Origin: Candidatus Calescibacterium sp. | Lineage (GTDB): Bacteria > Calescibacteriota > Calescibacteriia > Calescibacteriales > Calescibacteriaceae | Length of the DNA stretch: 64,000 nucleotides | Assembly: GCA_032249135.1 (NCBI GenBank) | Contig: JAVVGL010000003.1 | Span: forward strand, 62,893 to 126,892 | Reading direction: 5' to 3' | Shown: one piece after another, positions 8,018 through 64,000 of the stretch | Layout: every line of letters begins with the position of its first letter | How positions within the stretch are numbered: position 1 is the stretch's first letter | Made by a program: the position numbers and the translations under genes | The notes under the pieces: generated by a model | Database searches by the model: none | What the model was told of the DNA's origin: nothing | The model's input: only the letters and a program-made list of their open reading frames with translations

Positions 8018-8233
8018 TTTGGTAAAATTAATCAAATTATAAATTATATTTTATAGAATATTCTGATCTGCACAAAAATAAAATTACAAAGCAAATAAGT
8101 TAGAACAAAAACTGTTGACTTTCTTAAAGTTGCTTTTCCAGATTCCCAAATCTTTAATGATAAAGATCATAATGTAGAAAAAAAATCCCGTAAAAAAAGT
8201 TTTCTTTGAATTGATGGATAAATACATTAGATT

Positions 8234-8539: not shown

Positions 8540-8580
8540 ATAAAATTTGGAAGTATATAATGTGATTGGAGGTATATAAT

Positions 8581-8937: not shown

Positions 8938-8967
8938 ATTAAAAAGAAAATTAGAAGATTAAATTAA
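8918..8967 (+). repeat. Perfect 25-bp tandem duplication of the rplV 3' end
   Basis: aaagaaaattagaagattaaattaa at 8918-8942 and 8943-8967. Confidence 0.9.
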
Positions 8968-9003
8968 ATAGAAGATAAATAAATAAGGAGGAGGATATAA
9001 TTT

Positions 9004-10814: not shown

Positions 10815-10831
10815 TTTTTTTCCTCTAAACC

Positions 10832-46738: not shown

Positions 46739-47992
46739 GTGAGAAAAATTCAAGTTTTGCTCGTATTAGGAGCTCAGTGGGGAGATGAAGGAAAAGGAAA
46801 AATAGTAGATTTCCTATCTAAATACTTTGATTACGCTGTAAGATTTCAGGGAGGACCTAATGCAGGTCATACAGTAGTATTTGACGGCAGAAAAATAGTT
46901 CTACATACAATACCATCGGGGATCTTAAGAGAAAATTGCTGCGCTGTCATGTCAAATGGAGTTCTCATAGATATAGATGTTCTCGAAAAGGAATTCAAAT
47001 CTCTAAAAGATTTAGGAGTAGATTTTAAAGGGAGACTTTTCATTTCAAACCTATGCCACATAATTTTACCCCTACACAAAAAATTGGACGCTCTTTTAGA
47101 TACCAGACAAAAAATAGGAACAACAAAAATGGGAATCGGTCCAGCAGTTGAGTTCAAAGTCGCAAGACACGGAATAAGAATAAAAGACCTTTTCTCGCAA
47201 GAAATTAAAACACTTCTGAAAGAAAACATTGAATATGCTCAAAAACTTATAAAGAGCTTCAATCATACCGATCACGAAAACGATATCAATTTTGAGGAAC
47301 TTTATAGCAAGCTTATGAAATTTGCAGAAAAAATACACGATTTCGTTACAGATACCCAAAAACTTCTCAGAAAAAAAATAGAAGAAGGAAAGAAAATTTT
47401 ACTTGAAGGAGCTCAAGGAATACTTTTAGATATTGATTTTGGAACCTATCCATTTGTTACCTCAACAAACACATCCCCGGGTGGTTCAATTTGCGGAACT
47501 GGGATTAATCCCAAAAGTATAGATGCTATTTTGGGAGTAGTAAAAGCTTATACAACACGGGTTGGCGGTGGTCCTTTCCCCTCTGAAATTAAAGACGAAA
47601 ATGAAGCTCAAACTTTGAGGGAACTCGGAGGTGAATACGGCTCCACAACAGGAAGACCAAGGAGAGTTGGATGGTTAGATATCCCACTTTTGAAATACTC
47701 AAAAAACATAGCTTACTTTGATTTTTTAGCTCTAACTAAAACAGATGTACTTGAAAAACTTGGAAAATCCTTTTATGTAGAAAAATATTTATACAGAGAT
47801 GTAGAAATATATGAACCAGATACAACAGTTGATATAAGCCAAGTAGTTCCCGTGCTTTGTGAGGTAAAAAGGAATTCTGAGATAAAAAATATAATTGAGG
47901 GTGAGCTCGGATTGAAAGTTGTGATAAATTCATTTGGACCAGACAGAAGTAAAATTGAAATTGATGAAAATTTCCTCTCACTCATCCAGTAG
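46739..47992 (+). CDS. purA: Adenylosuccinate synthetase
   Basis: GAQWGDEGKGK, QGGPNAGHT, EGAQG, GTYPFVTS, TTGRPRRVGW. Confidence 0.98.
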   Translation: MRKIQVLLVLGAQWGDEGKGKIVDFLSKYFDYAVRFQGGPNAGHTVVFDGRKIVLHTIPSGILRENCCAVMSNGVLIDIDVLEKEFKSLKDLGVDFKGRLFISNLCHIILPLHKKLDALLDTRQKIGTTKMGIGPAVEFKVARHGIRIKDLFSQEIKTLLKENIEYAQKLIKSFNHTDHENDINFEELYSKLMKFAEKIHDFVTDTQKLLRKKIEEGKKILLEGAQGILLDIDFGTYPFVTSTNTSPGGSICGTGINPKSIDAILGVVKAYTTRVGGGPFPSEIKDENEAQTLRELGGEYGSTTGRPRRVGWLDIPLLKYSKNIAYFDFLALTKTDVLEKLGKSFYVEKYLYRDVEIYEPDTTVDISQVVPVLCEVKRNSEIKNIIEGELGLKVVINSFGPDRSKIEIDENFLSLIQ

Positions 47993-50861
47993 GATACCCA
48001 AAATAACAAAAATAACAATTCTATCTTTTTTTTATTTTTTCTTCGTAATCCATCAACTTTCAGCTTATGCTGACTGCGAAGGTGAAAAATTCAAATTCAT
48101 AATAGTAAATAGTTTACACAATGCAAAAATAACTTGTGAAAACTTGAAAGATAAAAACAAAGAAAAAGAAAAAGTAAAAGAAACCATTTCCCCAGAATAT
48201 AGTTCAAGACTTCTTGATTTTATATGTAGTCTTGAAGAAAAATGCCTCAATACAATTCAAATCCAAAACATTTTAAAGAACTTAACATCCTCCAAAATCA
48301 TAAACAACTTCAAAATAGAGGACAAAGTGGTATCAATCTTTCCCAACATAATGATAAAGAAAGTAAATATTACACACGACAAAACGATGGAAAAACTCAA
48401 AGAATTGCAAGAGATAAAAACAAAAATCAAAAATGAGTTTGAAGGTAAATTTATATCAGATATAAAAACAGAAGAAAAAATATGCGAACAAATCCTAAAA
48501 GAAGAAGGACTGATTGATCAAAAATGCTCAATAGAACTCAAAAGTATAAGGTTTGAAGAATCAGAACTCAATATAAAAATATCAGGTAGATTTCAAAAAA
48601 TAAACGAAATCAAAATAAATGGAGTAAGTCAGGAGGAAAAAGAAGAATTATTGAGGAGGTTAGAGAAAAATTTTAAGGGTAAAGTGATGAAAGACAGCAA
48701 CATAAATTCAATTGAAAAAGAAGTAAAAGAATTTATGTATGAGCTTGGTTTTTACAAATTTGAAGTAAAATTAGAAAAAAAAGATAGTTCAATTGAAATA
48801 TCAATAAAACCAAATAAAAGGCACACAGTTTTTTTGAATATAGAGAGAGAAAAGGAGTTAGGAATAAATTCAAGAAAAATCCTTTCACAAATTCCGAAAC
48901 TTCAATTCATATCCGAAAGATCTATAAAGAACCTAATAGCAGAATCGCTCAGAAAAGATGAAATACCAGTAGATAGCGTAGAATACAAGGAAATTGATCT
49001 TGAAGACATAACAATTTTGAGTATAGATGTAAAACTTGCAAAACTCTATTATCTCACAGACTTCAAAATATATGGACTTGAAAAACTTGACGAAGACGAA
49101 ATAAAAAGAAAAATCGGAGTAAAAACCAAAGGCATAATAAATATTTTCTACATAAGATATGCATTATACACGGAAAAACAAATTGACAATTTTATATATG
49201 AAATCGTAGGATATGCTAAATCAAAAGGTTTTGACCAGTTCAGAATAGAAAAAGTTCAGAAAACAAAAATTCAAGATGAAATAAAAGTAGAGGTATATGC
49301 AAAAGAAGGAGAAAGAACTGTAATTTCAAAAATTCGGGCTCTGAATTTCCCAGAAAATGTTGAAAGTATTATTCCTAAAACTCCTATGTTCTATGACTTT
49401 GAAAAAATATCGGACCTAAAAGATAATCTACAAAAATATTTGGAAGATAAAGGTTATAGAAACTTCAAAATAGAAGTTATAGAAGAGAGGGAAACAAAAA
49501 TTTTGAAAAACATCTATCTTGTTTATGTTGGAGACGAACAAAAATCCGAGCTTGGTCAAATTTTTATATACACTGAAACCTCTCCCGAATACATAAAGAA
49601 AATCGCAGATATAAAAGAAGGTAAAACAATATCCGGCAAATATTTAGAAAGAATAGAAAATGAAATCATAAGGACTCAATATTTCAAACATTTTCAGATA
49701 AATCTCTCAGAATTAGGAGAATCGGAAATACACAACGAAAAAAGCAATAGCATATCTGAATTTACGAAAGATAACAAAAATAATAAAAACAAAATTCTCC
49801 AACCACCCCCAACAAAAAAGTATATGCTGACAATACAAGGATATGAGAGTGATCTAAATGAGGTAGAGGTATCAGGGGGATTATCAACCGTAGAAGGTGT
49901 AAGAGGGAGGATACAATACACAAGAAAAAATATATTGTTTTCAGGTATAGATTTCAGAACAAATTTCAGAACAGCTTACTGGATTTTTCCATTTGGAAGA
50001 GATTTCGGTATAACATTCCTTGGTGCAGGTGCAGAAATAACAAGAAGAAAACTTATTGGAGGTTTTGACTCATCTTTGCTTTTCTCTCCATTCTACACGA
50101 GTACATTCTTATTTACAATACAAAAACCTGTTTTCTCATCAGCGACTTTATCTCAATCTCACGAGAAAATAAAAATTTCAATCCCAATATCTTTTGAGCT
50201 AAGAGAACTTCTCTCGTGGGATACTAATGCCTTTAAGATAAGACCTGAAAACGCAGGTCTAAGAGAAATATTTGTAATATTCCCTTCAATATCTTTTACT
50301 CAAACATTCAGCAAGAGCAACCAATTCAAAATCGGAATAAAATCAGAATTCATAAAACCCATAAGTAAAAATTTCTCATCAAAGATTGAAATAGGAGGAG
50401 AGTATTACAACATAGGAAGATTCGGAGGATTCGGACTAGCAGCATCCATAGGCAGAATAATGCTATATGAAAATCTTTATGATGTCCCGATAGAAAGGAG
50501 ATTTTTTATAGGAGGGATGAACGGTCCGCGAGGATATCAGGAGATATCAATTTTCCCTCAAAAATTGTATTCAAAGGAATATTTGGAAGTAAATCCAGAA
50601 AAATTAAAAACGGCAGAAAATAAAATCGTGTTATTATCAGAAATATATGCACCAAAAATCTTTTTTGCAACACCTTACTTTTTCTTTGATTTGGGAAATG
50701 TATTTCATGACGGAGATAAATTAGAATTTTTCAAGGGAACTGGTCCAGGAATTATGTTAGATACACCTTTCGGAATTTTCAGGTTTGAATTAGGATATGG
50801 AATAGAAAGAAAAACATTTATAATTCACTTTTCAGTAGGTTTTATGCGAAACATAATTTAA
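47964..50861 (+). CDS. BamA/TamA (Omp85) family outer membrane protein with multiple POTRA-like domains
   Basis: Signal peptide (AYA-D), RFFIGG..GPRGY, FFDLGNV, TPFGIFRFELGY, C-terminal barrel. Confidence 0.8.
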   Translation: MKISSHSSSRIPKITKITILSFFYFFFVIHQLSAYADCEGEKFKFIIVNSLHNAKITCENLKDKNKEKEKVKETISPEYSSRLLDFICSLEEKCLNTIQIQNILKNLTSSKIINNFKIEDKVVSIFPNIMIKKVNITHDKTMEKLKELQEIKTKIKNEFEGKFISDIKTEEKICEQILKEEGLIDQKCSIELKSIRFEESELNIKISGRFQKINEIKINGVSQEEKEELLRRLEKNFKGKVMKDSNINSIEKEVKEFMYELGFYKFEVKLEKKDSSIEISIKPNKRHTVFLNIEREKELGINSRKILSQIPKLQFISERSIKNLIAESLRKDEIPVDSVEYKEIDLEDITILSIDVKLAKLYYLTDFKIYGLEKLDEDEIKRKIGVKTKGIINIFYIRYALYTEKQIDNFIYEIVGYAKSKGFDQFRIEKVQKTKIQDEIKVEVYAKEGERTVISKIRALNFPENVESIIPKTPMFYDFEKISDLKDNLQKYLEDKGYRNFKIEVIEERETKILKNIYLVYVGDEQKSELGQIFIYTETSPEYIKKIADIKEGKTISGKYLERIENEIIRTQYFKHFQINLSELGESEIHNEKSNSISEFTKDNKNNKNKILQPPPTKKYMLTIQGYESDLNEVEVSGGLSTVEGVRGRIQYTRKNILFSGIDFRTNFRTAYWIFPFGRDFGITFLGAGAEITRRKLIGGFDSSLLFSPFYTSTFLFTIQKPVFSSATLSQSHEKIKISIPISFELRELLSWDTNAFKIRPENAGLREIFVIFPSISFTQTFSKSNQFKIGIKSEFIKPISKNFSSKIEIGGEYYNIGRFGGFGLAASIGRIMLYENLYDVPIERRFFIGGMNGPRGYQEISIFPQKLYSKEYLEVNPEKLKTAENKIVLLSEIYAPKIFFATPYFFFDLGNVFHDGDKLEFFKGTGPGIMLDTPFGIFRFELGYGIERKTFIIHFSVGFMRNII

Positions 50862-50953: not shown

Positions 50954-51653
50954 ATGATAAGAAGAAAAGAGGTTAAAAGGGCTTTTCCTTCTATTAGTAA
51001 GCATTACGGTATTTTTCCGGGTTATCATCGGCAGGATGTAAGAAAAAATCTGCTCAAACAGGACTGTCAGGTTCCCAAAGCTCAACAGGGGGACAAGTAT
51101 ATCCAAGCACATCAACAACACAGCAAGTATATCTCAAGGCTCAACTTCCGCTAAAACTATCGGTGGGAGGAGTACTTTTGATACAGCTAATTCAATCATC
51201 CAGAGTAGTGATAGAGGATATGTTGTTGCTGGTAAAACTTGGAGTTTTGGAGCAGGTGGGGCTGATTTTTATGTAGTGAAGTTAGATGCTAATGGGAATG
51301 TATGTTTTTCTCAAAATATTACAAATTACTCTGTATCATCAACCGTACCTAGTTTTTCATCTCCATCAACGGTCGCAATTTCACAATCTCCTACGGTTAA
51401 TTCTGTATCTCCTACTGTAAGTTATGGGGGTTCTGTGTCAGATGTTTGTGCATTGGCATCAGCTCCGCATATATGTTCTGAAAGTCAAGATTGTGGTTTC
51501 GGCTCCGCAATCGCAAGCGGAGAAAAAGAAGATGTTAAATCTTATGGGTGTTCGGTAGGCAGAATTTTTTTAAGATTTCTCATTCCTGCTTCTACGCTAA
51601 TTGTTTATGGTTGGTTGAGAAAGAAGAGGAAGAAAAAGAAAGATGGAATTTGA
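50954..51653 (+). pseudogene. Degraded lipoprotein/surface protein with one beta-propeller-type repeat and GCS-TM-basic C-terminal tail
   Basis: Signal peptide and lipobox (SAGC) split across frames; KTIGG...SIIQSSDRGYVVAG.T.SFGAGGADFYVVKLDANGN; YGCSV+hydrophobic+RKKRKKKK. Confidence 0.6.
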
Positions 51654-51718: not shown

Positions 51719-52639
51719 TCACTTATGGTTTCTGAAAACTTTGACAAAGTCCTCCCAATTTTCTGATTTTATTACTTCTTTTTTTATCTTTTCCAACCTG
51801 TTTATATCATTTATTTTATCTAAAAGGTTTTTGATTTGTTTTGCCTTTGAGCTACCAAACTTAAACTTAATGTCAAGAAAGATTGCCTTTTTTAGACCTT
51901 CTTTAAGACCTTTTATAAGTCCCCTTCTTTCTCCTCTTTTTTCTCCCTCTCTTTCCCCCCATTTATAAAAAAGAGTTTTTCTTATATCTATTTGTATTGG
52001 CATAGGTTCTGCTTTTATCTCAACATCAAATAAACCGCCTAAAAAACTTATATCTTCCATATATTTTAAAAGTTCTTTTTTGTTTTTGACAATTTTTGAA
52101 ATCTTTCTTATTACTTTTTTGAATACTTCTTGTTTCTCTCTGTATTTTCCGGCTAAAACTCCCAAAATGACTTCTTCTGGCTTATTACTTCCTAAAAATT
52201 CATCAGGGTCTATTTTCTTCAAATCAACAACTTTGAATTTAAGGAATTTAAATTCTGACCTGAAATAAGAAGGAGTAGGATTTCCCTTACCCACAAATAA
52301 AACTATCTGTACAGGTTCTTTGCCGAACTTCTCTTCAATAACAACAGAATATATAAGCATTCTTTTGGGTAAAGTTTTATCTTGTTGAGCTTGGATTTCA
52401 ATATGGAAGATTTTATCACCGGCTTTAAAGAGCATATCTGGTCGGAGGGATTTGAGGAACTTTACTTCCTGAGTTATATCTTCAAGTTTTTCCTTTATTT
52501 TCTCACCAGTGGCTATTGAGATAATTTTTCCTACTGCCCCTGAGAAAATTTCTTTTAAGACAAGGTCAAACCTTCTTAATTCTCTTTTCCGCTTATATTT
52601 TCTTTTTTCTCTTTGACGTTCTCTTTTATTCTTCTTCAT
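51719..52639 (-). CDS. Rpn/YhgA-like PD-(D/E)XK nuclease (paralog 2)
   Basis: LRPDMLF, FHIEIQ, LPKRMLIY, GEREGEKRGERRG repeats. Confidence 0.8.
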   Translation of the reverse strand: MKKNKRERQREKRKYKRKRELRRFDLVLKEIFSGAVGKIISIATGEKIKEKLEDITQEVKFLKSLRPDMLFKAGDKIFHIEIQAQQDKTLPKRMLIYSVVIEEKFGKEPVQIVLFVGKGNPTPSYFRSEFKFLKFKVVDLKKIDPDEFLGSNKPEEVILGVLAGKYREKQEVFKKVIRKISKIVKNKKELLKYMEDISFLGGLFDVEIKAEPMPIQIDIRKTLFYKWGEREGEKRGERRGLIKGLKEGLKKAIFLDIKFKFGSSKAKQIKNLLDKINDINRLEKIKKEVIKSENWEDFVKVFRNHK

Positions 52640-52999: not shown

Positions 53000-54667
53000 A
53001 TGATAAGCCTTGAAAGCTTGATCGGTATAGCTGAGTTTCTTCTTCTTCCATTAATTTTCGGAGTTATATTCTACTTTCTTATTTCCAAAATATCAAGAAC
53101 TGAACTCAATTGCGTCAGTCCAACACCTGCGATAGAAAAATATGATAGAACGGAATACATCCCAGAAAAGCTAATTTTTCCTTTGAGCTATCTTTTGGTT
53201 TCAACAATAGGAATACCATCAATATTAAGCGTGTATTTTGGATTAAAGTTTGGGATCAGAGCACTACTGCCTTATATTGTCTTTGGATCAATCTTTATAT
53301 CTTTTATAACAAACTACATATCACTTTTTGTATCAGTAAAAAATGAAGGAAAAGACCTAATAAGCATTCTAAGAAAATACGCAGAAGAAAGAGCAGGAAA
53401 AATTTTTTTGATTTTCAGCATAATAAATTTGCTTGCACTGTTCTTCATATTAACCGATGCAGTCTCCGGAATTTTTTTAAAGTATCCTCAAATATTATAT
53501 TCTGTTGGAATATCAGTGTTCCTCTACGCAATACTTGGAATAATAAGGCAAACCTCTCAAACACTTTTAGGAATATCAATTATCCTATCTATTTTGGTAT
53601 TTGCAATTTCCTTTATTATGGGGCAAATTATCTATCATAATATCCCTTATCAAAATAAGATATTAGGTTCTGAAACGATACAAATTCTTATCATTCTCTA
53701 CATATTAACTATATCACTTATACCCTATTGGGGTGGAACCAAAATAAAATCAACTTCACATCTCATTTCGCTTGCAGCAGTAATATTAATAGGATGTATT
53801 GTGGCTATAAAAAATATTCTAAATACTCCTCAAATATTCACAGAAAAAATTTTAGAACCTATTACACTATATCAGAACGATGTATTTCCTTCAATTTTTG
53901 TTTTAGCAATATCAGCATCTTGGGGAGGATTTAACTCATTAATTCTCTCATCAATAGTTTCAAAGAGAATAAGATCATACTGCAATATACCAAGCATATC
54001 GTTTTTAGGTTCAATTGCGGCAATGCTCTTCGCAATAGCGGTAATAATAACAACTATACCTTTTGATAACCTATTTAAACAGCCATCAGCAGAAAAATTC
54101 ATTTTAAGTTTTATACCAGCACTTTTTGAATCGCTTCCTCAAAACCTCAGATATAAGGTAATAGAAGAGTTTTTAGCTTATTCTCTCATATCTTTTACAA
54201 TACTATCTCAGGAAACCATCGGTAGATCTTTAAGGTTGATATTAAAAGAAAGTTTGAGTTCAGGAAACGAAAAAAAGAAGGATAAAAAATCATCCAAATG
54301 GAATATAAACTTTATAAAAACGGAGACATTTACCTTCCTCATAGCAGTAGCTTTTTTCCTTATTGAGAGAGAAAAAATAGATAAAATATGGATCATATTC
54401 GGAACATCAGGGTATCTTGTTCTATTACTTTCCTTCATTACAAGCTATATATTTTTAAGAAAGGAAAAATCTTCTCTCTTTATCAGGGCACTCAAATTAT
54501 TCTCCATTCTTCTTTTTATCTTCTCATCAATTGTAATATTTTCTTTTTTGATGGTAGGAATAAAAAATTATGAAGGACTATCTGTACTATTTCCGGCAAT
54601 AACTCTAATCTTAACCTTGTATGTTATATCAGTTATAGCGAGAGCGATTCGTATGAAGGAAAGCTGA
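53000..54667 (+). CDS. Divergent carbon starvation CstA-family transporter
   Basis: TPA....D..EYIP motif, many TM helices, SVKNEGK, GGFNSL. Confidence 0.6.
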   Translation: MISLESLIGIAEFLLLPLIFGVIFYFLISKISRTELNCVSPTPAIEKYDRTEYIPEKLIFPLSYLLVSTIGIPSILSVYFGLKFGIRALLPYIVFGSIFISFITNYISLFVSVKNEGKDLISILRKYAEERAGKIFLIFSIINLLALFFILTDAVSGIFLKYPQILYSVGISVFLYAILGIIRQTSQTLLGISIILSILVFAISFIMGQIIYHNIPYQNKILGSETIQILIILYILTISLIPYWGGTKIKSTSHLISLAAVILIGCIVAIKNILNTPQIFTEKILEPITLYQNDVFPSIFVLAISASWGGFNSLILSSIVSKRIRSYCNIPSISFLGSIAAMLFAIAVIITTIPFDNLFKQPSAEKFILSFIPALFESLPQNLRYKVIEEFLAYSLISFTILSQETIGRSLRLILKESLSSGNEKKKDKKSSKWNINFIKTETFTFLIAVAFFLIEREKIDKIWIIFGTSGYLVLLLSFITSYIFLRKEKSSLFIRALKLFSILLFIFSSIVIFSFLMVGIKNYEGLSVLFPAITLILTLYVISVIARAIRMKES

Positions 54668-54701: not shown

Positions 54702-55202
54702 TTAAAAACTATAACCTAAATATAAGCCCATAGCAGGGGTTACTAAAAAAGGTACCGCCTTACTTATATTTCTATTTTCCTTATCTTTGCTGTGAAATGC
54801 TTTCAATCCCAAAAAAATGTCAGCCGTAAATTTATTATCTTTTCTGATTCCTTTGGAACCTAATGTCAGCACTAATATTGGAAATTCCCTTTCCACAGCA
54901 GCAGCTACCCCTTGATAGATATAAACTCCTTCAAACTCTTTTAGCAAATACTCCCTAATTCCTACCTCAAATTCTACTGGAATTATAAAAAACACATTAT
55001 TTAACTCAAAATTTAAAGAAAGCTTACCTAATGCTCTTAATTCAAAATTTATACCAGGAGTGGGAACAATCAAAACCCCTCCATGCCCTGCCCCTTCAAT
55101 AGCAAAAGATAAAGGATTAACAGATATGGTATATTTGTACTCAGTTTCTGAACCTCTATCATGAACTTCTGAAATTAACGCAAATATTAAAATTAGAAGC
55201 AT
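54702..55202 (-). CDS. Small outer-membrane beta-barrel (DUF3575-like), array paralog 7
   Basis: YTISVNP, PGINFE, GIREYL, C-terminal GLYLGYSF. Confidence 0.7.
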   Translation of the reverse strand: MLLILIFALISEVHDRGSETEYKYTISVNPLSFAIEGAGHGGVLIVPTPGINFELRALGKLSLNFELNNVFFIIPVEFEVGIREYLLKEFEGVYIYQGVAAAVEREFPILVLTLGSKGIRKDNKFTADIFLGLKAFHSKDKENRNISKAVPFLVTPAMGLYLGYSF

Positions 55203-55288
55203 AAATTATCACTCTCAACTCAAACCACACTTAATTTTTTCACCAAATATATCCCAAAATTAAAATAGCCTTGTTTCTTATACAAAAC

Positions 55289-55816
55289 TTACCATGTATA
55301 ACCCAAATATACTCCTAAATCTCGCCAAATCCCAAAAGGACCGAGTTTAACATCGCCAAAAAATCCATATGCTGCTCTCAAACCTAAAAATGGGTCTATG
55401 GTAAAACCACTTCTGAAAACATATTTATAACCACCTACCAATATCAAATTAGGTATATACCTTGCAATCTTTTTATATCTTTCTTCTGGCAAGAATAGTA
55501 GATTAATCCATCCCCACGCTATTCCTTGATAAAAATAAAATCCTCTAAATTCTTTTAGCAAATATTCCCTAATTCCTACCTCTATTTCAGTAGGAATAGG
55601 AAATGGAAATATTACATTAATTTCAAAGTTAAATGACCAATTACCTCCTCCTTTCGCCTCAAAATTTATTCCAGGATTTGGTAAAATTATTCCCCCCGCA
55701 TGACCTGCACCCAAGATAAAAAAAGCTAAGGGATTAACACCAAGGGAGTATTTATGTTCCAATTCTTTTTCTGAAGTTTCAGATATCAGTAAAAGTAGTA
55801 AAAAACCTAATAGCAT
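55289..55816 (-). CDS. Small outer-membrane beta-barrel, array paralog 6
   Basis: YSLGVNP, PGINFE, GIREYL, GFTIDPF, GVYLGYTW. Confidence 0.7.
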   Translation of the reverse strand: MLLGFLLLLLISETSEKELEHKYSLGVNPLAFFILGAGHAGGIILPNPGINFEAKGGGNWSFNFEINVIFPFPIPTEIEVGIREYLLKEFRGFYFYQGIAWGWINLLFLPEERYKKIARYIPNLILVGGYKYVFRSGFTIDPFLGLRAAYGFFGDVKLGPFGIWRDLGVYLGYTW

Positions 55817-55922
55817 ATTCGTCATAGGAACCCTTTTCAAGTATGTTTATATTCTATTTTTGTGTAGGTTTTCTAAATTTTTACCGTAAACTCACAAAAT
55901 TACCACACAAATATTAGAAATT

Positions 55923-56979
55923 TTACTGGCATATATATGCTCCCACTTGGAAGCAAAACGAAGTTAAATAAGCTTTAGTTGCTTGTATTGCCTTGTTTCT
56001 GACATCCCAGTAAACATTTTTTTGAATACTATCTGGACCGCCACAATCGCCAGGCCAATCACCCTGATCACAAGCACTCATACAATCTCTGTCCGGGTTT
56101 CCCGCCGAATCCTTATTTAGCATGCAATGAGTCATAATCTTCTTTTTAACATTACATGGAGGATAGTCATTTAATGTGAAACCAGAAAACCACCTCGTAC
56201 AAGCAAAATCAGCAGCCGTTGACCATCCTCCTGCCCCGTATAAGCCAGAAAAGAGTCCCCACCCTTCAGCCTCTGTTCCAGAAGGTATATAGGTATTCGG
56301 AAATTTTACTTCCACATTATACTCAGCACATTCCCAATCCAAGCAAACAATAGCCCAGCTAACACACTGCACTCTCTTACAGTTTGGAACAAATATGGAA
56401 TTAGAATGGGACCAAAAATCTTGAACGGGCTGAATCAACTCACCTATAGTGCCATAATCAGTATATCCATAGTATGCAATAGGGTTAGTTCTGAACACAC
56501 AATAACAGCTGTTCTGGGATGATTTTCTGATTAACCTCTTATCAGCGACTGAACATCCTATTCCTCCTCCTCCACCTACTCCATATGATGGAGGTGGATA
56601 TGTTGGAGGAGGTGTAGGAGATGGAGATGTAGGAACACATGAACAGGATACTGGATTTGATTTAACCGGATCTGTTAACACCTGAGCTTTCCCATAGCAA
56701 CCACTAAAATTGCTATTATCACAATGGTAAGAAGAGTCATTTGAGAAGAGACAATCAGCTACATTTGCACCATTTGCTACTGAAGCAGAATCATATGTCC
56801 TACACCAAACTAAACCGCTCACCAAAGGAGGACCGCTATCCCAATTATTATACCTAAAGCCATATTTATATAGTTTAGGATAAAAACTCTGAAGCTGACT
56901 AATGGCTGTCTCTGTGATCTCCTCATGTATAGGCTCTCCTATGAAACACGGAAACTACCATAGATTTTATCCCATACAT
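55923..56979 (-). pseudogene. HET-C/VWA7-like C-terminal cassette 4 without RHS core, frameshifted near 5' end
   Basis: MYGIKSMVVSVFH (ATG 56979), then shifted frame GEPIHEEIT...ADC...HCDN...QDFWSHS...HCMLNKD. Confidence 0.65.
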
Positions 56980-56982
56980 AAT

Positions 56983-57509
56983 TTACCAACTATAACCCAA
57001 ATATAATCCTAAGATTGGAAATAGAAAAAAAGGCATCCAACTTAACGGTCTTTTTTCTCTTTCTTTTACATAAACTATTCTTAATTCCAAAAATGGATCT
57101 ATTGTAAAACCACCTTGATTATCAATATATTTATAGCCTGTACCCAATACTAAATATGGATAATTGACTTTGGTTAAGGTCTCAATATCGAGCTTATCTA
57201 TCCATCCCAACTTTCCACCTTGATAAAGATAAACACCTTGAAATCTTTCTCTCCCTTGTAAATATTCTCTAAATCCGAACCCAAATTCTACTGGAAGTAT
57301 AATCAGAGCACTGTTTAGAGTGAAATTTAATGAAAAATTATTTTTAACTCCAATCTCAAAATTCATTCCCAAAGATGAAAAAATAATTTTTTTTTCTCCC
57401 TAATATCTATAATAACGGAAGCAGGACAAATTCCAAATGTATATCTGAAATTTTTGATTTCTGAAACATTAAATGATAAGATAAACAAAAATAAAAAATT
57501 ACCCAACAT
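56983..57509 (-). pseudogene. Small outer-membrane beta-barrel, paralog 5, frameshifted at A9 tract
   Basis: ATG 57509 MLGNFLFLF..RYTFGICP; one extra A at 57387-57395 restores frame to GMNFE...GLYLGYSW. Confidence 0.75.
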
Positions 57510-57530
57510 ATGTAAAACTATTTTACTATC

Positions 57531-58013
57531 TCAAAAAGCATAACCCAAGTATAATCCTAAAGCCGGTAAAAATCCAATAGGTTCAATACCAAAAGATCCT
57601 CCACCGTACATTAGTCTTAATCCCAAAAATGGATCTACCACAAAACCTCTCTTTGAAATACTTTTGTATCCAAGTGTTAATATCAAACATGGTATATATT
57701 TTGCAACTTCCCTATATTTTTTATCTGGTCCCCAAATATTTAACCATCCCCAGGCTAAACCCTGGTAAAGATAAAAACCTTCTAATGCTTTATCTTCTTC
57801 TAAGTATTCCCTTATTCCTACTTCACCTTCAAGAGGCTCAATTAACAATTTGTTATTTACTTCGAAATTCAAAGAAAAGTTTCCTTTAAGTCCTAATTCA
57901 AAATTTATTCCAGGAGTTGGGAGAAAAAGGAAGGGTGTGATAAAAGAAAAAGGATTAATTTCCAATGTGTATTGTTTTGATACTAAAAAAAATATAATAA
58001 AGGCTAATAGCAT
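57531..58013 (-). CDS. Small outer-membrane beta-barrel, paralog 4
   Basis: YTLEINP, PGINFE, GIREYL, DPFLGLR, GLYLGYAF. Confidence 0.7.
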   Translation of the reverse strand: MLLAFIIFFLVSKQYTLEINPFSFITPFLFLPTPGINFELGLKGNFSLNFEVNNKLLIEPLEGEVGIREYLEEDKALEGFYLYQGLAWGWLNIWGPDKKYREVAKYIPCLILTLGYKSISKRGFVVDPFLGLRLMYGGGSFGIEPIGFLPALGLYLGYAF

Positions 58014-59326
58014 ATGCTTGCGTCTACAAAGCAGAAAGTTAATAGATAATGTTTGGTTGAAGCTACAGCCATTTCCTTCGCATCATTATGAGCAAATTTC
58101 TGAACATTTCCTGCTCCTTTAATACTACATTCACTATCACAACTTGACCAACAATAATCCCCTCCCGGTTCATCTTTATTCAATATACAATGAGCTTTAC
58201 ATGGAGGCCAAGAACAGGCAAGATCTTCTAACCAACTCCAACCACCTGAATCATATTTCCCAGATTCAAGTCCTTTATTACTTGCCTCAACAGGTGTAGG
58301 TAGTGAGGTATATGGCCAATTGTTCTGTATAGGATAATCATATACTGGACACAATCCACTCGGATCAATAGAACAAGGAACTATCATCACAAGGACTGGT
58401 TCAACAAAAAACGCTGTTGAGTGTGACCAAAAATCCTGCACGGAATGAAGCAATCTACCTAATTTTTCAAAATCCATTCCTTCGCTTCCACTACCATATT
58501 GGAATGTTCCAAACGAACAAGAACAATATGAGGGAGATTTCTTTTTTAACCTTTGATTTGCAACTGAACATGCAGGTAATAATCCTTCTATTAATTCTCC
58601 TAGAAATTTGCCTAATTCACTCCCATAACCGTGCCAATTCCATGTATCACTTCCTTCCTCATCATAACAGTAACAAGTTATCAGTCCCGAAGCAACAGGC
58701 TTTTCTAACTTACTAGCGTTGTCGTAACAACCTCCAAAATTATTATTATCACAATGGAAAGAAGAATCGGTTTCATAAAGACAATCCGCTATATTTACAC
58801 CATGAGCAACTCTATTTTCATAGCTCCTGCATCGTAGTATATCAAATGCATATGGTCCTTCCCATCCACATTCATCACATCTTGAACCATGCTCACATAT
58901 TTTACGTGATGGGAATTGACCACATGAAAAAGTTTCATTAATCGCCCTCTCGGTTATCTCTTCATGGATGGGCTTTCCTTCGTGCCAGGTGCCAATAAAT
59001 GTTTTAACAACTTGCAGCTCTGTTTTAAACATTCCCACCGGATCAACTAAATCATGCGGCGAATTATTCGCATATGCATACAAGTTCAAGTCAGATACGG
59101 GGTCAGGTTGCAAATATCTTCCTACTCTCCAATCATAATATCTCCTCACATTATAATACAAACCTGTTTCTATATCCCTATACATCCCATACAGCCTAAA
59201 TGGAATGTAGTTGCTTACAACACCTCTTTCATACAAAGGCTCCCCAAATGGACCAAATTCTGCTCTCCATACCTCCTTTCCTGCCTCATCATATATAACT
59301 CTCGGTATCCCTCTCCAATTCATCAT
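58004..59326 (-). CDS. Orphan RHS core-end + Cys-rich HET-C/VWA7-like domain (cassette 3)
   Basis: ETGLYYNVRRYYD..GRYLQPDP, NSP..VDPVG; HEEIT, HCDN, LGRLLHSVQDFWSHS, LNKD. Confidence 0.85.
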   Translation of the reverse strand: MMNWRGIPRVIYDEAGKEVWRAEFGPFGEPLYERGVVSNYIPFRLYGMYRDIETGLYYNVRRYYDWRVGRYLQPDPVSDLNLYAYANNSPHDLVDPVGMFKTELQVVKTFIGTWHEGKPIHEEITERAINETFSCGQFPSRKICEHGSRCDECGWEGPYAFDILRCRSYENRVAHGVNIADCLYETDSSFHCDNNNFGGCYDNASKLEKPVASGLITCYCYDEEGSDTWNWHGYGSELGKFLGELIEGLLPACSVANQRLKKKSPSYCSCSFGTFQYGSGSEGMDFEKLGRLLHSVQDFWSHSTAFFVEPVLVMIVPCSIDPSGLCPVYDYPIQNNWPYTSLPTPVEASNKGLESGKYDSGGWSWLEDLACSWPPCKAHCILNKDEPGGDYCWSSCDSECSIKGAGNVQKFAHNDAKEMAVASTKHYLLTFCFVDASICY

Positions 59327-59352
59327 AGCAGCTCAGTCCTTCCGCTTGAAAC

Positions 59353-59919
59353 TTACCAGCTATAACCTAAATATAAACCTAGGGCTGGCAGAATTCCAAA
59401 CTTAAAGGACCCAAATGAGAAATTTCCTATAAGAAAACCTCCTCCATATATTATCCTTAAACCTGAAAACGGATCTATTGTAAAACCTTTCTTTGAGATA
59501 GATTTGTTTCCCAAAGTTAATATTAAATTTGGCACATACTTTGCAAGCTTTCTATAACGATTTTTCTCTGAATTTTCTTCAAATTCTGCAGAAGTTGCAA
59601 TATTTATCCATCCCCATGTTAATCCTTGATAAAGATAGGTACCTCTAAATCTTTCTTTTCCCAAATATTCCCTAATTCCTAACTCTACCTCGACAGGAAA
59701 TATAAACCACACATTATTTAACTCAAAATTCAACGAAAGCCTATCTTTAACTTTCATCTCAAAATTTATTCCAGGAATTGGTAGAAAGAATTCGGGAGCA
59801 TGTCCACCACCTGTGACGAAAGGTAAAGGATTAATCTCCAGTGTATATTTATATTTATATCCTAGATTCTCTTCTAAGGTCTCTGAAAACAGAAAAATTA
59901 CAAAAAATACTAATAACAT
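59353..59919 (-). CDS. Small outer-membrane beta-barrel, paralog 3
   Basis: YTLEINP, PGINFE, GIREYL, GFTIDPF, GLYLGYSW. Confidence 0.7.
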   Translation of the reverse strand: MLLVFFVIFLFSETLEENLGYKYKYTLEINPLPFVTGGGHAPEFFLPIPGINFEMKVKDRLSLNFELNNVWFIFPVEVELGIREYLGKERFRGTYLYQGLTWGWINIATSAEFEENSEKNRYRKLAKYVPNLILTLGNKSISKKGFTIDPFSGLRIIYGGGFLIGNFSFGSFKFGILPALGLYLGYSW

Positions 59920-61397
59920 AAATTTGGAGCTTCTTGACAAAAAGAAAATAAATAATGCACAGTTGATGCTAATGCTCTATTTCTGGCATCCCAGAAAGCA
60001 TACCTTTGTACATTATCGTCACCTCCACAGTCGCCCGGCCAATCGCCTTGATCGCAAGCACCCATGCAATCTCTATCGGGTCCCACATTATCATCTTTAT
60101 TTAACATACAATGCGTAAAGACTTGTGCCTGAAGATCACACGGAGGCCAACGACTACCAATGAAAGATATCGCCTTTTGACATGAAATATCATCTGAAGC
60201 CGACCAGCTATATTCCCACTTACTTCCACCATATAGACCGGATGTAAGGTAATAAAAGTGAAAAAGAGAATCTGGTATTTTATGCAGGATGTAATACGAA
60301 ACTACCTCATACTCCGCACATTCCCAGTCAAGACAAATTCCTAAAAATGATGATGCACATATTCTGTTCCCACATATTGAAACAAATACTGCATTAGAAT
60401 GGGCCCAGAAGTCTTGAACGGGATGAAGATACCTTCCCAAAGTTTCATAATCTTCTGGTACTCTAAAAGAGCACTGCAAAATCGGTCGTAAAGTCTTTTC
60501 CTTTAATCTTTGGGTTGAAACAGAATACTCTCTTTCATTATCTTCTCTGGGTCCGATTGGTGATCGGTATGGCGGTGTTTGTGAGCCTTTAGAACAACCC
60601 CTTTTCTCGCTTTCTCCAGGTCCACTTGGTGGTGGGTATGACGAGGGTTGTGAGTCTTTGCCAGAAGAACAACCTCTTATCTCGCCTTTTCCGGGTCCGC
60701 CCCCATCTGGTGGAGGGTATGTTGGTGGTGGGTTTGACGGTGGTTTTGGTGGTGGGTTTGGTAGTGGTTGGTCGCAATTAGCAACACACACACATGCTAC
60801 CACTCCCCTTGATTTAGGGAATTCTACCCTTTCTGTCACCTTACGACATACTTCAAAATTATCATTGTCACAGTGGTATGAAGAATCGTCTTCATAAAAA
60901 CAGTCTGCCCTGTTCGCACCTTGTGCTAATTTATTTTTATATCCTCTACACTGTGCAACTGAATAAAGCCACGGACTATCTTTAAAACTCCAATAATCTT
61001 CCGCTGGTCCAAACTGCCTGAGAATTGAATATCCAAGATTGTTAACGGCATCTTCTGTTATTTTTTCGTGATGAGGATAACCAACATGATGAGGGAAACC
61101 TAGCGGTCGCATAGTAGTTTTAAACATCCCCAAAGGATCAACTACATCATACGGTGAATTACTTACATACGCATACAAATTTAAGTCAGAAACAGGGTCA
61201 GGTTGCAGATACCTCCCTACCCTCCAATCATAATACCTCCTCGCATTATAATACAATCCTGTTTCAATATCCTTATACATCCCATACAGCCTAAACGGAA
61301 TGTAGTTGCTTACAACACCTCTTTCATACAATGGCTCCCCAAATGGTCCAAACTCTGCTCCACAGTACTTTTCTACCGATGTATTAACAAGATACAT
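59910..61397 (-). CDS. Orphan RHS core-end + Cys-rich HET-C/VWA7-like domain (cassette 2)
   Basis: RHS core with VDPLG; HEKIT, HCDN, LGRYLHPVQDFWAHS, LNKD; AGGAGGA RBS. Confidence 0.85.
   Translation of the reverse strand: MYLVNTSVEKYCGAEFGPFGEPLYERGVVSNYIPFRLYGMYKDIETGLYYNARRYYDWRVGRYLQPDPVSDLNLYAYVSNSPYDVVDPLGMFKTTMRPLGFPHHVGYPHHEKITEDAVNNLGYSILRQFGPAEDYWSFKDSPWLYSVAQCRGYKNKLAQGANRADCFYEDDSSYHCDNDNFEVCRKVTERVEFPKSRGVVACVCVANCDQPLPNPPPKPPSNPPPTYPPPDGGGPGKGEIRGCSSGKDSQPSSYPPPSGPGESEKRGCSKGSQTPPYRSPIGPREDNEREYSVSTQRLKEKTLRPILQCSFRVPEDYETLGRYLHPVQDFWAHSNAVFVSICGNRICASSFLGICLDWECAEYEVVSYYILHKIPDSLFHFYYLTSGLYGGSKWEYSWSASDDISCQKAISFIGSRWPPCDLQAQVFTHCMLNKDDNVGPDRDCMGACDQGDWPGDCGGDDNVQRYAFWDARNRALASTVHYLFSFCQEAPNLCY
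61183..61337 (-). repeat. 155-bp RHS-core segment identical to 63748-63902 (diverged third copy near 59085-59245)
   Basis: Base-by-base comparison by eye. Confidence 0.9.
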
Positions 61398-61420
61398 AGC
61401 TCAGTCCTCCTATTTAAAAT

Positions 61421-61957
61421 TTACCAACTATAGCCTAAATATAAACCTAAAACTGATGATAAATATGCAAAAGGGCTAATATTATACATAAAAGGAGAAC
61501 GACCACTCATTATTCTTATACCAAAAAAAGGATCTAAAGTTAATCGAATCTTTCCGATAAGTTTGTATCCAACGGTCAATATAAAGTGTGGATACTTTCC
61601 TGCAATTTCCCAATCTCTTGTTTTTAATCCCCCTACTGCTATCCCTTGATAAAAATATAAACCTTGGAAATCTTTCTTTTTTCTTAAATATTCTCTAATG
61701 CCTACTTCAATTTCAACTGGATAAACAAAAAACAAATTATTTATTTCAAAATTGACTGAGAATATATTCGGAAACTTTATCTCAAAATTTATCGCAGGAG
61801 TTGGTAAATATTCAGTTAAAATAAGTGGTGGTTCTTTCTCCTCAACGAAAATCATAAAAGAAAAAGGGTTAATGGATATAGTATATTTGTATCTTCCCTC
61901 TTGCTCTTCAGCTGAAAACTCCGAAATTAAAGTAAACAATAAAAACCACAAAAACAT
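61421..61957 (-). CDS. Small outer-membrane beta-barrel, paralog 2
   Basis: YTISINP, PAINFE, GIREYL, DPFFG, GLYLGYSW. Confidence 0.7.
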   Translation of the reverse strand: MFLWFLLFTLISEFSAEEQEGRYKYTISINPFSFMIFVEEKEPPLILTEYLPTPAINFEIKFPNIFSVNFEINNLFFVYPVEIEVGIREYLRKKKDFQGLYFYQGIAVGGLKTRDWEIAGKYPHFILTVGYKLIGKIRLTLDPFFGIRIMSGRSPFMYNISPFAYLSSVLGLYLGYSW

Positions 61958-61968
61958 AAAGTTATTAT

Positions 61969-62553
61969 CTAATAGTTCCAACTATACCCCAAATAAACAC
62001 CTATAGCTGGGAAAAAATCAACTTTCCCAAATCCTAATCCATACCCTAACCCATATACTATCCTTGAACCTAAAAATGGGTCTATTGTAAAACCACTTCC
62101 TGAAATATATTTATACCCACATAACAATATCAAATTTGGTACATATACATATTTCGTTGTTCTCTCAAAATTTTCTACACGAGTATAAAAATTTACAATT
62201 CCCCAACTTAATCCCTGATAAATATACAATCCATAAAACTTTTTGCCTTCTTGCAGATATTCCCTAATACCCAACTCCAACTCAGCTGGAATTATGCTTC
62301 CGAAAAAGGTCATATTATTGATTTCAAAATTTATTGATACCTTCCCTATAATTTTTACTTCAAAGTTTATCCCAGGACTTGGAACAACTACTAATTTTCT
62401 TCCGGGATGAAGTTGTAAGATGGAAAAACCGCTATCAGAAAGCATAAAAGGTAAAACAGAAGTTGGATTAATAGATACAGTATATTTGTATTTTTCTCCT
62501 AAATCACCAGTTGATTCCATTATTAAGACAAAAACTAAAAATCCTGCGGGCAT
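61969..62553 (-). CDS. Small outer-membrane beta-barrel, paralog 1
   Basis: YTVSINP, PGINFE, GIREYL, GFTIDPF, GVYLGYSWNY; alternative GTG start at 62568. Confidence 0.7.
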   Translation of the reverse strand: MPAGFLVFVLIMESTGDLGEKYKYTVSINPTSVLPFMLSDSGFSILQLHPGRKLVVVPSPGINFEVKIIGKVSINFEINNMTFFGSIIPAELELGIREYLQEGKKFYGLYIYQGLSWGIVNFYTRVENFERTTKYVYVPNLILLCGYKYISGSGFTIDPFLGSRIVYGLGYGLGFGKVDFFPAIGVYLGYSWNY

Positions 62554-62600
62554 AGAGCTAATCCTCACTCTTTTCTAAAAAATTACGAAAATCTAAAAAT

Positions 62601-64000
62601 TTAGTCATTAAGCCTCAAACATAAGTCACCTCCACTCCTACAAAAAATATCTAAGTAGTGTTTGGTTGAATCTTTAGCTCTACTTTCTACCTCAAAATAA
62701 GCGTCCCTTTGAACACCCTTGGCACACGGATCAGTTGTTGTACGATCCAAACCTCCCCACGAATCTTTATTCAATACGCAATGAGCATCACAACGAGGGG
62801 GAAATCCTTTAGGATTAGCAGTACTAAATGGTCCCTTTCTACACAGGAAATCTTCAATATCGGTCCAGCCATCAAATATAAATACACCAGATATTATTCC
62901 TCTACTTTTTGCATCGTTTTCGTTTGGTAAAGTAGTTTCATCCCACCTTACTTCTCTATAATATTCCGTGCAGCCTCCGCTTACATACCTTCTACAGCCT
63001 GAGACATATATAGCGGTTGAATGGGCCCAGAAGTCTTGAATGGGATGGAGCAATCTTCCCAATTTTTCATAATCCATCTGCTCCCGAGGTATATCGCTTG
63101 AAGGGATTCGTGCTCCAGGAGGAAAGCCACGCATTGTAACTCTGAACCAAACACTAAATGTACCAAAGCTACAGCTGCAAAGATCAAATGATCTTTTCTG
63201 TAACCTTGGTATTACTGAACATCCTCTACCCCCACCTCCAGTTTCAGTTTCACGTTTTGTTCCAATAATGGGGAGAATAATAGGGCTAATGTCAGCGCAA
63301 CTACAGTTTATTAAATCATAAATAGCTGGCCTAGATATTTCCCATGCTATATCATAACAGCCAGCAAAATCACTATTATCACAATAGAAATAAGATTTAG
63401 TTGCATAAAGGCAATCAGCTCTATTTGTACCCTGAGCCACTGTATTTGCATATGTTCTACATCTCAGACAAAATTGGTCATAAGCAAAACAAACCTCCGG
63501 TCCCATATCCCAATTTTCTACTCTATCTTTATGGCGGCAGATGCTTCTTTTTGCTCCATCAGTCGTAAAACACCAAAAAGCTTCATTGATTGCATTTTCA
63601 GTTATACGTTCATGTATTGCATGCCCCTCGTGCCAACTATCAGTTGGCGGAGACCAAACGGTTTTGGTGACCCTCATTGTAGTTTGAAACATCCCTACCG
63701 GATCAACCAAATAATAAGGTGAATTATTCACATACGCATACAAGTTCAAGTCAGAAACAGGGTCAGGTTGCAGATACCTCCCTACCCTCCAATCATAATA
63801 CCTCCTCGCATTATAATACAATCCTGTTTCAATATCCTTATACATCCCATACAGCCTAAACGGAATGTAGTTGCTTACAACACCTCTTTCATACAATGGC
63901 TCTCCAAACGGACCAAATTCTCCTCTCCATATCTCCTTTTCAAATTCATCATATATAACCCTCGGCACACCTCTCCAATCCGATATTATATATCCCTCCT
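62601..64000 (-). CDS. RHS repeat protein, 3' part (5' end beyond window), with Cys-rich HET-C/VWA7-like C-terminal domain 1
   Basis: Frame open to window edge (EGYIISDWRGVPRVIYD); RHS core ending NSPYYLVDPVG; HERIT, LGRLLHPIQDFWAHS, LNKD. Confidence 0.88.
   Translation of the reverse strand, partial: EGYIISDWRGVPRVIYDEFEKEIWRGEFGPFGEPLYERGVVSNYIPFRLYGMYKDIETGLYYNARRYYDWRVGRYLQPDPVSDLNLYAYVNNSPYYLVDPVGMFQTTMRVTKTVWSPPTDSWHEGHAIHERITENAINEAFWCFTTDGAKRSICRHKDRVENWDMGPEVCFAYDQFCLRCRTYANTVAQGTNRADCLYATKSYFYCDNSDFAGCYDIAWEISRPAIYDLINCSCADISPIILPIIGTKRETETGGGGRGCSVIPRLQKRSFDLCSCSFGTFSVWFRVTMRGFPPGARIPSSDIPREQMDYEKLGRLLHPIQDFWAHSTAIYVSGCRRYVSGGCTEYYREVRWDETTLPNENDAKSRGIISGVFIFDGWTDIEDFLCRKGPFSTANPKGFPPRCDAHCVLNKDSWGGLDRTTTDPCAKGVQRDAYFEVESRAKDSTKHYLDIFCRSGGDLCLRLND
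63748..63902 (-). repeat. 155-bp RHS-core segment identical to 61183-61337
   Basis: Base-by-base comparison by eye. Confidence 0.9.

Follow-up and report, generated by a model that had tools for sequence, protein, structure and literature searches.

We analysed a stretch of 64,000 nucleotides (the window) from the genome of Candidatus Calescibacterium sp., corresponding to positions 62893-126892 of contig C3, at whose end the window also ends. Its last part, 54702-64000, carries on the minus strand an array of four Rhs C-terminal (CT) cassettes, CT1 to CT4, and seven paralogous small genes, OMP1 to OMP7. The array probably encodes an Rhs contact-toxin system, in which one toxin family with a phospholipase C (PLC) fold, acting in the cell envelope, and one family of outer-membrane barrels, acting as immunity proteins, have diversified together; toxicity, substrate, location and immunity binding are what we infer. 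In the list of open reading frames (ORFs), the genes follow each other as CT1, OMP1, OMP2, CT2, OMP3, CT3, OMP4, OMP5, CT4, OMP6 and OMP7, the order given in the initial annotation of this DNA. The other CTs are 40-57% identical to CT1, and the seven small proteins show 43-51% pairwise identity to OMP1.

A scan of metagenomes returned 30 loci (numbered with L in the following), each an array made up of these two families; the largest number of toxin cassettes, nine, is found in L017. A second array, on contig C8 of the same genome, is laid out as ToToToo, where T is a toxin domain and o a barrel gene; over its two arrays this genome contains 11 barrel matches, one or two per stored cassette. 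The linkage seen in the window extends to all these homologous loci, every toxin of the 30 metagenome loci and of the C8 array being followed by a barrel gene: a full-length one lies directly behind 44 of the 47 full-length toxins, a split or partial one behind the other 3. In 22 of 36 unique modules the toxin and barrel profile matches overlap by 7 nt.

The partners are also specific for the toxin type, as had been supposed. The identity between toxins correlates with that between the barrels downstream (Mantel r 0.57, a value reached in 0 of 2000 permutations), and not with that between the barrels upstream (r 0.01, p 0.375, n=24); for toxin and second barrel, r is 0.86 (n=19). When a toxin is at least 80% identical to a reference in the genome studied here, as in 18 cassettes, its barrel is at least 90% identical to the partner of that reference in 17. 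OMP1 relatives are 91-99% identical where the CT1-type toxin is 84-99% identical, and OMP4 is 96-100% identical wherever the CT3-type toxin (91-95% identical) occurs.

Toxins are mosaics. A comparison of the window with L015, L020 and L017 reveals that cassettes exchange the N-terminal halves of their toxins, which run from HExIT to HCDN, and that the C-terminal half remains with the barrel genes. Among 29 pairs of modules with barrels at least 90% identical, the C-terminal half of the toxin is always at least 78% identical, and the N-terminal half falls to 49-63% in 7; conversely, a toxin half at least 85% identical next to a barrel less than 70% identical was found in no pair for the C-terminal half and in 9 for the N-terminal one. 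This distribution fits a specificity residing in the C-terminal half of the toxin; mere proximity of that half to the barrel gene fits too. Within types, both partners are under purifying selection, the median ratio of non-synonymous to synonymous substitution rates (dN/dS) being 0.34 for toxins (35 pairs) and 0.21 for barrels (31 pairs), with pairs that are not independent. Both trees are made of deep, discrete types with short tips, the barrel one of about 18 types on long stems. A division of first and second barrel genes into two clean subfamilies was tried on the barrel tree and rejected, as it takes 11 label changes against a minimum of 2.

The initial annotation had described the CTs as a single, disulfide-rich family, and shared motifs, 21-23 cysteines and one predicted fold bear this out. 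The toxin domain is about 340-400 amino acids (aa) long. The motifs GxNxADC, [HY]CDN, [HQ]xxQDFWxHS, HCxLNKD and TxxYLxxFC were found in all four CTs; HExIT, listed along with them, lies within CT1-3, but in CT4 only upstream of the called start. The 300-aa ORF of CT4 indeed contains 21 cysteines, and CT1, CT2 and CT3 contain 21, 23 and 23, respectively. In an alignment of 27 sequences, numbered after the CT3 domain, residues H23, D95, H196, D200, H204, G258, H281 and D287 are invariant, and E24, H93 and N285 nearly so. These residues match the motif set of the Tox-HET-C class, described in a part of Zhang et al. (2012, PMC3482391) as an all-alpha domain with the motifs H, [DE], HxD, HxxxDxxxH, Nxx[DE] and [ST]G, a predicted fold of the Zn-PLC/S1-P1 nuclease kind and an occurrence in polymorphic-toxin contexts. 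In the CTs the N..D motif reads N-K-D, and CT4 of the window has Gln at the position of H196.

The family is rare: a search of 5.8 billion proteins yielded 10 clusters. Its only relatives in 185,579 species genomes are two stand-alone, secreted Leptospira proteins of 259 aa. One of them passes the cut-off of the Pfam family VWA7_N (34.3 against 27.5 bits) and has a weak Het-C match (E 0.0099); aligned with the CT profile by hhalign, the Leptospira relative reaches a probability of 97.2%, over 68 N-terminal columns only. Since a search for further relatives of the Leptospira proteins gave only 3 close ones, no wider bridging profile could be obtained. About 21 conserved cysteine columns, a Gly/Pro-rich insert and beta-hairpin inserts distinguish the CTs from the Leptospira relatives, which have 7 cysteines and none of these inserts. 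Look-alikes of the CTs retrieved with a language model (scores 0.92-0.93) are clusters carrying VWA7_N or named as HET-C-related.

The three-dimensional model of the CT3 toxin domain, computed with AlphaFold2 on the 27-sequence alignment, has a mean predicted local distance difference test (pLDDT) of 76.0 and a predicted template modelling score (pTM) of 0.78, with a disordered Gly-rich stretch at 129-166. In an exhaustive VIA-align comparison with the PDB, six chains reached a Z of at least 5, all of them Zn-PLCs or S1/P1 nucleases, the next row being at 3.5. The Zn-PLCs are 1olp (Z 8.5, root-mean-square deviation (rmsd) 4.2, 160 residues aligned), 1ah7 (Z 8.1, 169 aligned) and 8cqm (Z 7.6); the S1/P1-type nucleases are 3w52 (Z 5.8), 8qjl (5.8) and 5fb9 (5.7). 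These six rows superpose 147-169 residues at rmsd 3.7-4.5, span model residues 2-339 and show 11-17% identity. A PLC/P1 fold of the predicted toxin domain is thus well supported at the level of the model, and the CTs are probably a lineage-specific branch of the superfamily that comprises Zn-PLCs, S1/P1 nucleases and HET-C/VWA7_N domains. Among solved structures, the model has strong matches only with Zn-PLCs, such as B. cereus PLC, the N-terminal domain of clostridial alpha-toxin and Listeria PlcB, and with S1/P1 nucleases, and His and Asp are conserved at the motif positions; the CTs differ from these enzymes in the low identity, the lack of any match at the sequence level and the large Cys-rich inserts. 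The richness in cysteine, together with an exported partner, argues for an action outside the cytoplasm.

A similar approach was followed for the small proteins. Their alignment starts with a hydrophobic leader, continues with eight stretches in which hydrophobic and polar residues alternate, and ends in the conserved C-terminus ...GLYLGYSW, in which Y190 and G192 are invariant, W195 is nearly invariant and the final residue is W or F. A terminal aromatic residue is typical of substrates of the barrel assembly machinery (BAM), and the organism can be expected to assemble outer-membrane barrels, given that the window encodes an Omp85/POTRA protein. OMP3, described from the outset as an outer-membrane type barrel, is modelled by AlphaFold2 as a closed 8-stranded barrel (pLDDT 78.1, pTM 0.74), with a hydrophobic helix at residues 3-22 and about eight long strands. 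Its best VIA-align matches are outer-membrane barrels: the OprF barrel (Z 14.3, rmsd 2.9, 115 residues), CarO (13.6), a designed transmembrane barrel (13.4) and a Thermus outer-membrane protein (12.9), followed among others by OmpA (12.8), OmpW (12.4) and PagL (12.3). According to these models, the small proteins likely sit in the outer membrane. Small 8-stranded outer-membrane barrels, such as the N-terminal domains of OprF and OmpA, OmpW, CarO, PagL and NspA, have in common with them the fold (Z 11-14 over 112-136 residues), the hydrophobic leader and the aromatic C-terminus; in contrast, the proteins described here belong to no sequence family, are always found within toxin cassettes, and are multi-copy and diversified by type. 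The family counts 27 representatives among 1.84 billion proteins, or 48 clusters at 90% identity, and occurs in 2 of the 7 genomes of the phylum.

A different location has to be considered at this point: the small proteins might confer immunity to the cognate toxin, but as soluble 8-stranded barrels in the periplasm, similar to avidin, YceI or lipocalins. Soluble barrels (designed ones, avidins, YceI) do match the OMP3 model at Z 8-12.6, which makes the membrane location likely, but not proven, and the Foldseek rows for the same model, weak throughout (E 4e-3 or worse), include PsbO and nitrobindin. Moreover, no outer-membrane Pfam family is matched by 41 members, and for toxins acting at the surface the relevant part of Zhang et al. 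(2012, PMC3482391) describes immunity proteins that are secreted or transmembrane. We nevertheless regard a soluble barrel as quite improbable: transmembrane beta-barrels, seven natural outer-membrane ones and a designed one, make up 8 of the 10 best VIA-align rows (Z 11.8-14.3), including the top five, the hydrophobic/polar alternation of the strands is strict, and the ...Y-L-G-Y-S-W/F end is conserved. DUF3575 clusters among the language-model look-alikes of the barrels, a lead only, point the same way.

Besides these barrel comparisons, a number of observations weigh against the proposed system as a whole. Concerning the toxin, the CTs fit the HET-C/VWA7_N assignment of the initial annotation by their motif set and by the predicted Zn-PLC/P1 fold, but not by Pfam: all 13 CTs examined match VWA7_N (PF25107) below threshold, at the helix with HxxQDFWxHS (12-22 bits, cut-off 27.5), and none matches Het-C (PF07217), so that membership in either family, as defined by its profile, is not supported. 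Profile searches against PDB sequences gave no match for the toxin domain, returning only the RHS core or chance antibody rows. Foldseek, the tool named in the initial annotation for comparison of the CT fold with Zn-PLCs and P1 nucleases, found no PDB match for the toxin model (best E 0.83), the match being provided by VIA-align, and a Z of 8.5 is, by VIA-align's own standard, still in the range often reached by models that have no true counterpart. The case for the fold stands nonetheless, because all six top rows belong to the superfamily predicted beforehand from the motifs, with a gap below them. Concerning the barrels, the 41 members have no Pfam match at E up to 10 and no NCBIfam match, and a PDB sequence search with their profile returned nothing real. 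Concerning the pairing, all loci come from one narrow lineage and their counts are not independent replicates; tight physical linkage alone can produce co-variation; barrels are more conserved than toxins within a type; in the single exception among the 18 cassettes (L022:5507), a toxin 83% identical to CTb, a type of the C8 array, is paired with a barrel only 42% identical; and the presence of two barrels in some cassettes has no explanation in terms of immunity. A prediction of the complex between the CT3 toxin domain and OMP4, run without controls, gave interface scores (ipSAE) of 0.00 and 0.00 and is evidence neither for nor against binding. Finally, this genome, estimated to be 87% complete, lacks the main RHS body with its export signal, and searching 6 other genomes of the phylum did not reveal an RHS body either.

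Co-variation with one half of the toxin would also be expected if the barrels were the surface molecules that the toxins recognise, either as non-targeted variants of a replaced receptor or as identity partners that signal self when they match an arriving CT, as in kin recognition. The predicted outer-membrane fold suits a receptor, as do the deep discrete types into which the barrels fall. A precedent is given by the Bacteroidales secreted antimicrobial proteins (BSAPs), whose genes, according to the portion of PMC4999547 used here, adjoin a gene for a replaced, non-targeted variant of the outer-membrane target, which decides sensitivity. BSAPs, however, are diffusible MACPF pore formers associated with one replaced target locus, whereas here PLC-fold toxins are borne by Rhs proteins and each stored cassette has a barrel of its own. 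Target replacement predicts a single locus with allelic exchange, and not a copy per orphan toxin; many receptors, as the 11 matches of this genome would be, should widen and not narrow sensitivity; and the overlap of barrel start and toxin stop is the usual layout of toxin and immunity genes. We consider a receptor role unlikely, and immunity the better account of the barrels.

In a further alternative, the CTs would be secreted hydrolases, nucleases or phospholipases, used for scavenging nutrients or for modifying hosts or surfaces, and the barrels partners for export or anchoring in the outer membrane of the producer. S1/P1-type nucleases are often scavenging enzymes, and the nearest relatives outside Rhs proteins, the Leptospira ones, stand alone, neither having an adjacent barrel gene. 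Against this, the domains form one polypeptide with a preceding Rhs core that includes an autoproteolysis site, they are stored in swappable cassettes, and they fall into discrete types diversifying together with a partner, the pattern by which polymorphic toxin-immunity systems are defined; furthermore, 8-stranded barrels are too narrow for proteins to be exported through them. This alternative appears very improbable, and the contact-toxin system remains the reading followed below.

The mechanism we propose would start with the RHS core, a stub of which, about 300 nt long and 80-93% identical between copies, would let homologous recombination move an orphan cassette onto the expressed rhs gene. 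The Rhs protein, exported by Sec, possibly as a lipoprotein of the DUF7305 type or together with one, would present the toxin to neighbouring cells, the toxin domain being released at the PxxxxDPxG autoproteolysis site. As a disulfide-rich metallo-hydrolase, the toxin would then act in the envelope of the target, most likely on a lipid head group of the outer membrane or the periplasm, less likely on nucleic acid. Siblings would be protected by the barrel of the same cassette, which would bind or block the cognate toxin in the outer membrane, mainly through the C-terminal half of the latter. A narrower proposal, which we advance tentatively and judge a little short of an even chance, is that an integral outer-membrane barrel family confers type-specific immunity to a lipid-directed, disulfide-locked Rhs toxin of PLC fold, so that the attack is stopped at the outer membrane, with specificity placed in the C-terminal half of the toxin and an N-terminal catalytic half left free to shuffle. 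If this were true, an outer-membrane protein would provide immunity against a toxin delivered by contact, and a first candidate immunity family would become known for the Tox-HET-C class.

The Rhs-associated core TIGR03696 was recognized in CT1-3 (E 2e-16 to 2e-17, 60-64 bits against a cut-off of 32.5) and not in CT4. At the junction of core and CT, the autocleavage motif PxxxxDPxG, cited in the initial annotation, is present in CT1-3 as PYYLVDPVG, PYDVVDPLG and PHDLVDPVG, where cleavage is predicted to occur. The core DNA, repeated in the window (Table 1), also matches the starts of three cassettes of the C8 array (86-93% over 250-314 nt), and likely serves as recombination substrate for cassette swapping. 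The C8 array begins at the exact point of the core where contig C3 ends.

As window and contig end inside the RHS core, the label "RHS-CT1" could not be verified from the window alone. It gains support from L014, which shares the last 60 bases of the window and runs on for 225 nt, in which the CT1 frame stays open for 75 aa more, into RHS-body sequence: because of this extension, CT1 is probably the 3' end of the main, expressed rhs gene. A full-length RHS protein of 1801 aa, ending in this CT family and matching RHS_repeat (E 1.3e-9) and YD_repeat, is encoded in the related metagenome locus L019; the ORF ahead of it, of 273 aa, has a lipoprotein-like leader and matches DUF7305 slightly below the cut-off. 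In the genome studied here, the N-terminus of a DUF7305 lipoprotein is found at the end of contig C14, and a paralogue, with a DUF7305 score above the cut-off, is cut short by the end of contig C26; this suggests that two loci of DUF7305 and rhs genes feed the two arrays. A sheath gene of type VI secretion systems (VipB/TssC) was not found in this genome, within its 87% completeness.

In L019, nine consecutive G (5630-5638) are located between the DUF7305 ORF (4824-5645) and the rhs ORF (5702-11107). As the rhs frame is already open from 5594, a slip by one base in this run would fuse the two ORFs; the arrangement could stem from an error in sequencing, from genes that are indeed separate, or from phase variation, by which the Rhs protein would acquire a lipoprotein leader.

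The same toxin types occupy different positions in different strains. The CT3 type, orphan in the window, is fused to an RHS body of at least 255 aa in L016; CTb, orphan on C8, is fused to one of at least 376 aa in L026; the CT1 type, joined to the RHS body here, is an orphan with a 27-aa stub in L017; and L036 and L019 have yet other CT types on the long gene. The set of cassettes also varies by strain, the CT1 cassette directly adjoining the CT3 cassette in L017. These differences are the classical displacement mechanism of Rhs systems. The view, expressed in the initial annotation, of something other than a generic Rhs locus is hence not borne out by the layout, a textbook one: a main-gene CT, then orphan cassettes with core stubs of about 300 nt, and types that swap between main and orphan positions.

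A third rhs gene of this genome, on contig C39 (1556-8230, L046), encodes 2224 aa and ends in a more distant relative of the toxin family, with a VWA7_N motif (E 3.5e-5) and an hhalign probability of 96.4% to the CT profile over 124 columns. In place of a barrel gene, the next gene encodes an unrelated protein of 473 aa without family match.

Orphan arrays of Rhs proteins usually hold unrelated families of toxin and immunity genes. With Rhs/YD-repeat loci, such as the enterobacterial rhs ones and those of the Bacillus WapA type, the present arrays share the TIGR03696 core with PxxxxDPxG ahead of a variable CT, orphan cassettes with a core stub, a downstream partner gene on the same strand overlapping the toxin gene, and cassette positions varying by strain. 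They differ in that 47 of 47 full-length CTs have one toxin fold and all partners belong to one exported barrel family, in that the toxin halves recombine separately, and in the lack of a detected sheath gene and the presence of the lipoprotein-like DUF7305 gene ahead of rhs in L019. From VWA7_N and Het-C domains they are set apart by their scores below both Pfam cut-offs, by the roughly 21 conserved cysteine columns and by the extra inserts. The row for Tox-HET-C in a table of Zhang et al. (2012, PMC3482391) lists neither an immunity protein nor RHS repeats, both of which are present here.

Rhs arrays, Tox-HET-C domains and 8-stranded outer-membrane barrels are thus already known, separately. 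What is new is an RHS-borne, Cys-rich HET-C/PLC branch, arrays of a single fold in which the toxin halves shuffle separately, and a family of barrels as constant partner. Among the papers listed by literature searches, none was on an outer-membrane barrel conferring immunity to a polymorphic toxin; searches also found no work linking Rhs with this lineage and no other paper using the term Tox-HET-C. HET-C-type domains, known from bacteria and from fungal incompatibility, were predicted in 2012 to be PLC/P1-like toxins. Some 15-18 natural types of toxin and partner on one fold make the mapping of specificity by chimeras directly feasible, and exchange of Rhs cassettes is seen here in an uncultured, thermophilic candidate lineage. 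Protection by an outer-membrane barrel would be possible, a location not found described for polymorphic-toxin immunity in the part of PMC3482391 covered.

Two genes of the window require correction. CT4, annotated as frameshifted, is instead 5'-truncated: its frame is open to about 56942, including HEEIT (...GEPIHEEITE...), the whole RHS-core stub is absent, no start codon occurs before 56825, and two in-frame stops lie just upstream. The same truncation, from toxin-profile position 16 onward and with no RHS-core match ahead, is found in L015, L016 and L030, while L028 has a full-length version with the RHS-core stub, 93% identical. In CT4, Gln replaces the first His of HxxxDxxxH, which is present in 45 of 47 family members; the only two without it are CT4 of the window, which L014, the same contig, represents among the 47, and a copy in L030 that does not differ from it. 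The truncated gene keeps an open frame, with dN/dS of about 0.53, and may be a decaying remnant or a stored donor of C-terminal halves.

The frameshift in OMP5 is real in the window, where the N-terminus lies in another frame (57363-57509) and the profile match contains two stops, but it is not a general property of the gene. Two independent DNA runs (X4, X5) carry, at full depth, one extra base behind 57388, which assigns the break to this strain or assembly, and OMP5 is intact in L015, L016 and L017.

Table 1. Features of the Rhs array in the window (positions within the 64,000 nucleotides)
Feature	Position	Strand	Description
RHS-core DNA repeat, copies 1-3	59022-59319, 61117-61414, 63682-63979		298 nt each, 80-88% identity
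CT1	62601-63998	-	3' end of rhs, probably of the main gene, open at window end; RHS-core part ~63693-63998, predicted toxin domain 62604-63692; TIGR03696 E 2.4e-16
OMP1	61969-62568	-	first barrel-family gene behind CT1, 199 aa
OMP2	61421-61981	-	second barrel-family gene in CT1 cassette, 186 aa
CT2	59910-61397	-	orphan cassette; RHS-core stub ~61128-61397; predicted toxin domain 59913-61127 with long Pro/Gly-rich insert
OMP3	59353-59940	-	barrel gene, CT2 cassette; the barrel protein modelled by AlphaFold2
CT3	58004-59326	-	orphan cassette; RHS-core stub 59033-59326; predicted toxin domain 58007-59032, the one modelled
OMP4	57531-58013	-	barrel gene, CT3 cassette; start overlaps CT3 end by 10 nt
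OMP5	56983-57509	-	second barrel gene, CT3 cassette; frameshifted here (called ORF 56983-57372)
CT4	55923-56942	-	5'-truncated orphan toxin cassette; called ORF 55923-56825
OMP6	55289-55840	-	first barrel gene behind CT4; 67% identical to corresponding gene of C8 array
OMP7	54702-55202	-	last barrel gene, array end; 54% identical to last gene of C8 array

The genome assembly consists of 51 contigs, 2.1 Mb in all, with about 34% G+C. DNA runs holding sequences of the locus are mostly labelled as hot-spring metagenomes, and the sole organism name found with homologues is Candidatus Calescibacterium. Scans of the window with Rfam and for tRNAs gave no match, and a scan for promoters and terminators gave signals at or below chance. 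Contigs from two hot-spring metatranscriptome libraries (X19, X20), 90-99% alike, cover parts of CT1, OMP1/2, CT2, CT3, CT4 and OMP6/7, with depth in 24 of 30 and 21 of 30 bins, respectively. This hints that relatives of the array are transcribed; contigs in such libraries are no proof of transcription, and nothing follows from the parts without coverage.

Plus-strand genes for the 975-aa Omp85/POTRA (BamA-like) protein (47934-50861) and for a CstA-family membrane protein (53000-54667) flank the stretch that follows the array downstream. A 306-aa ORF on the minus strand (51722-52639), about 2 kb past the end of the array, has a weak, sub-threshold match to the Rpn family of recombination-promoting nucleases/putative transposases (E 3.6e-5, 23.7 against 52.1 bits). 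Next to it, a plus-strand ORF of 125 aa (51276-51653), without family match, encodes a Ser/Thr/Pro/Val-rich product with a hydrophobic C-terminal stretch followed by KKRKKKKD, a tail that, judged by eye, looks like a sorting signal.

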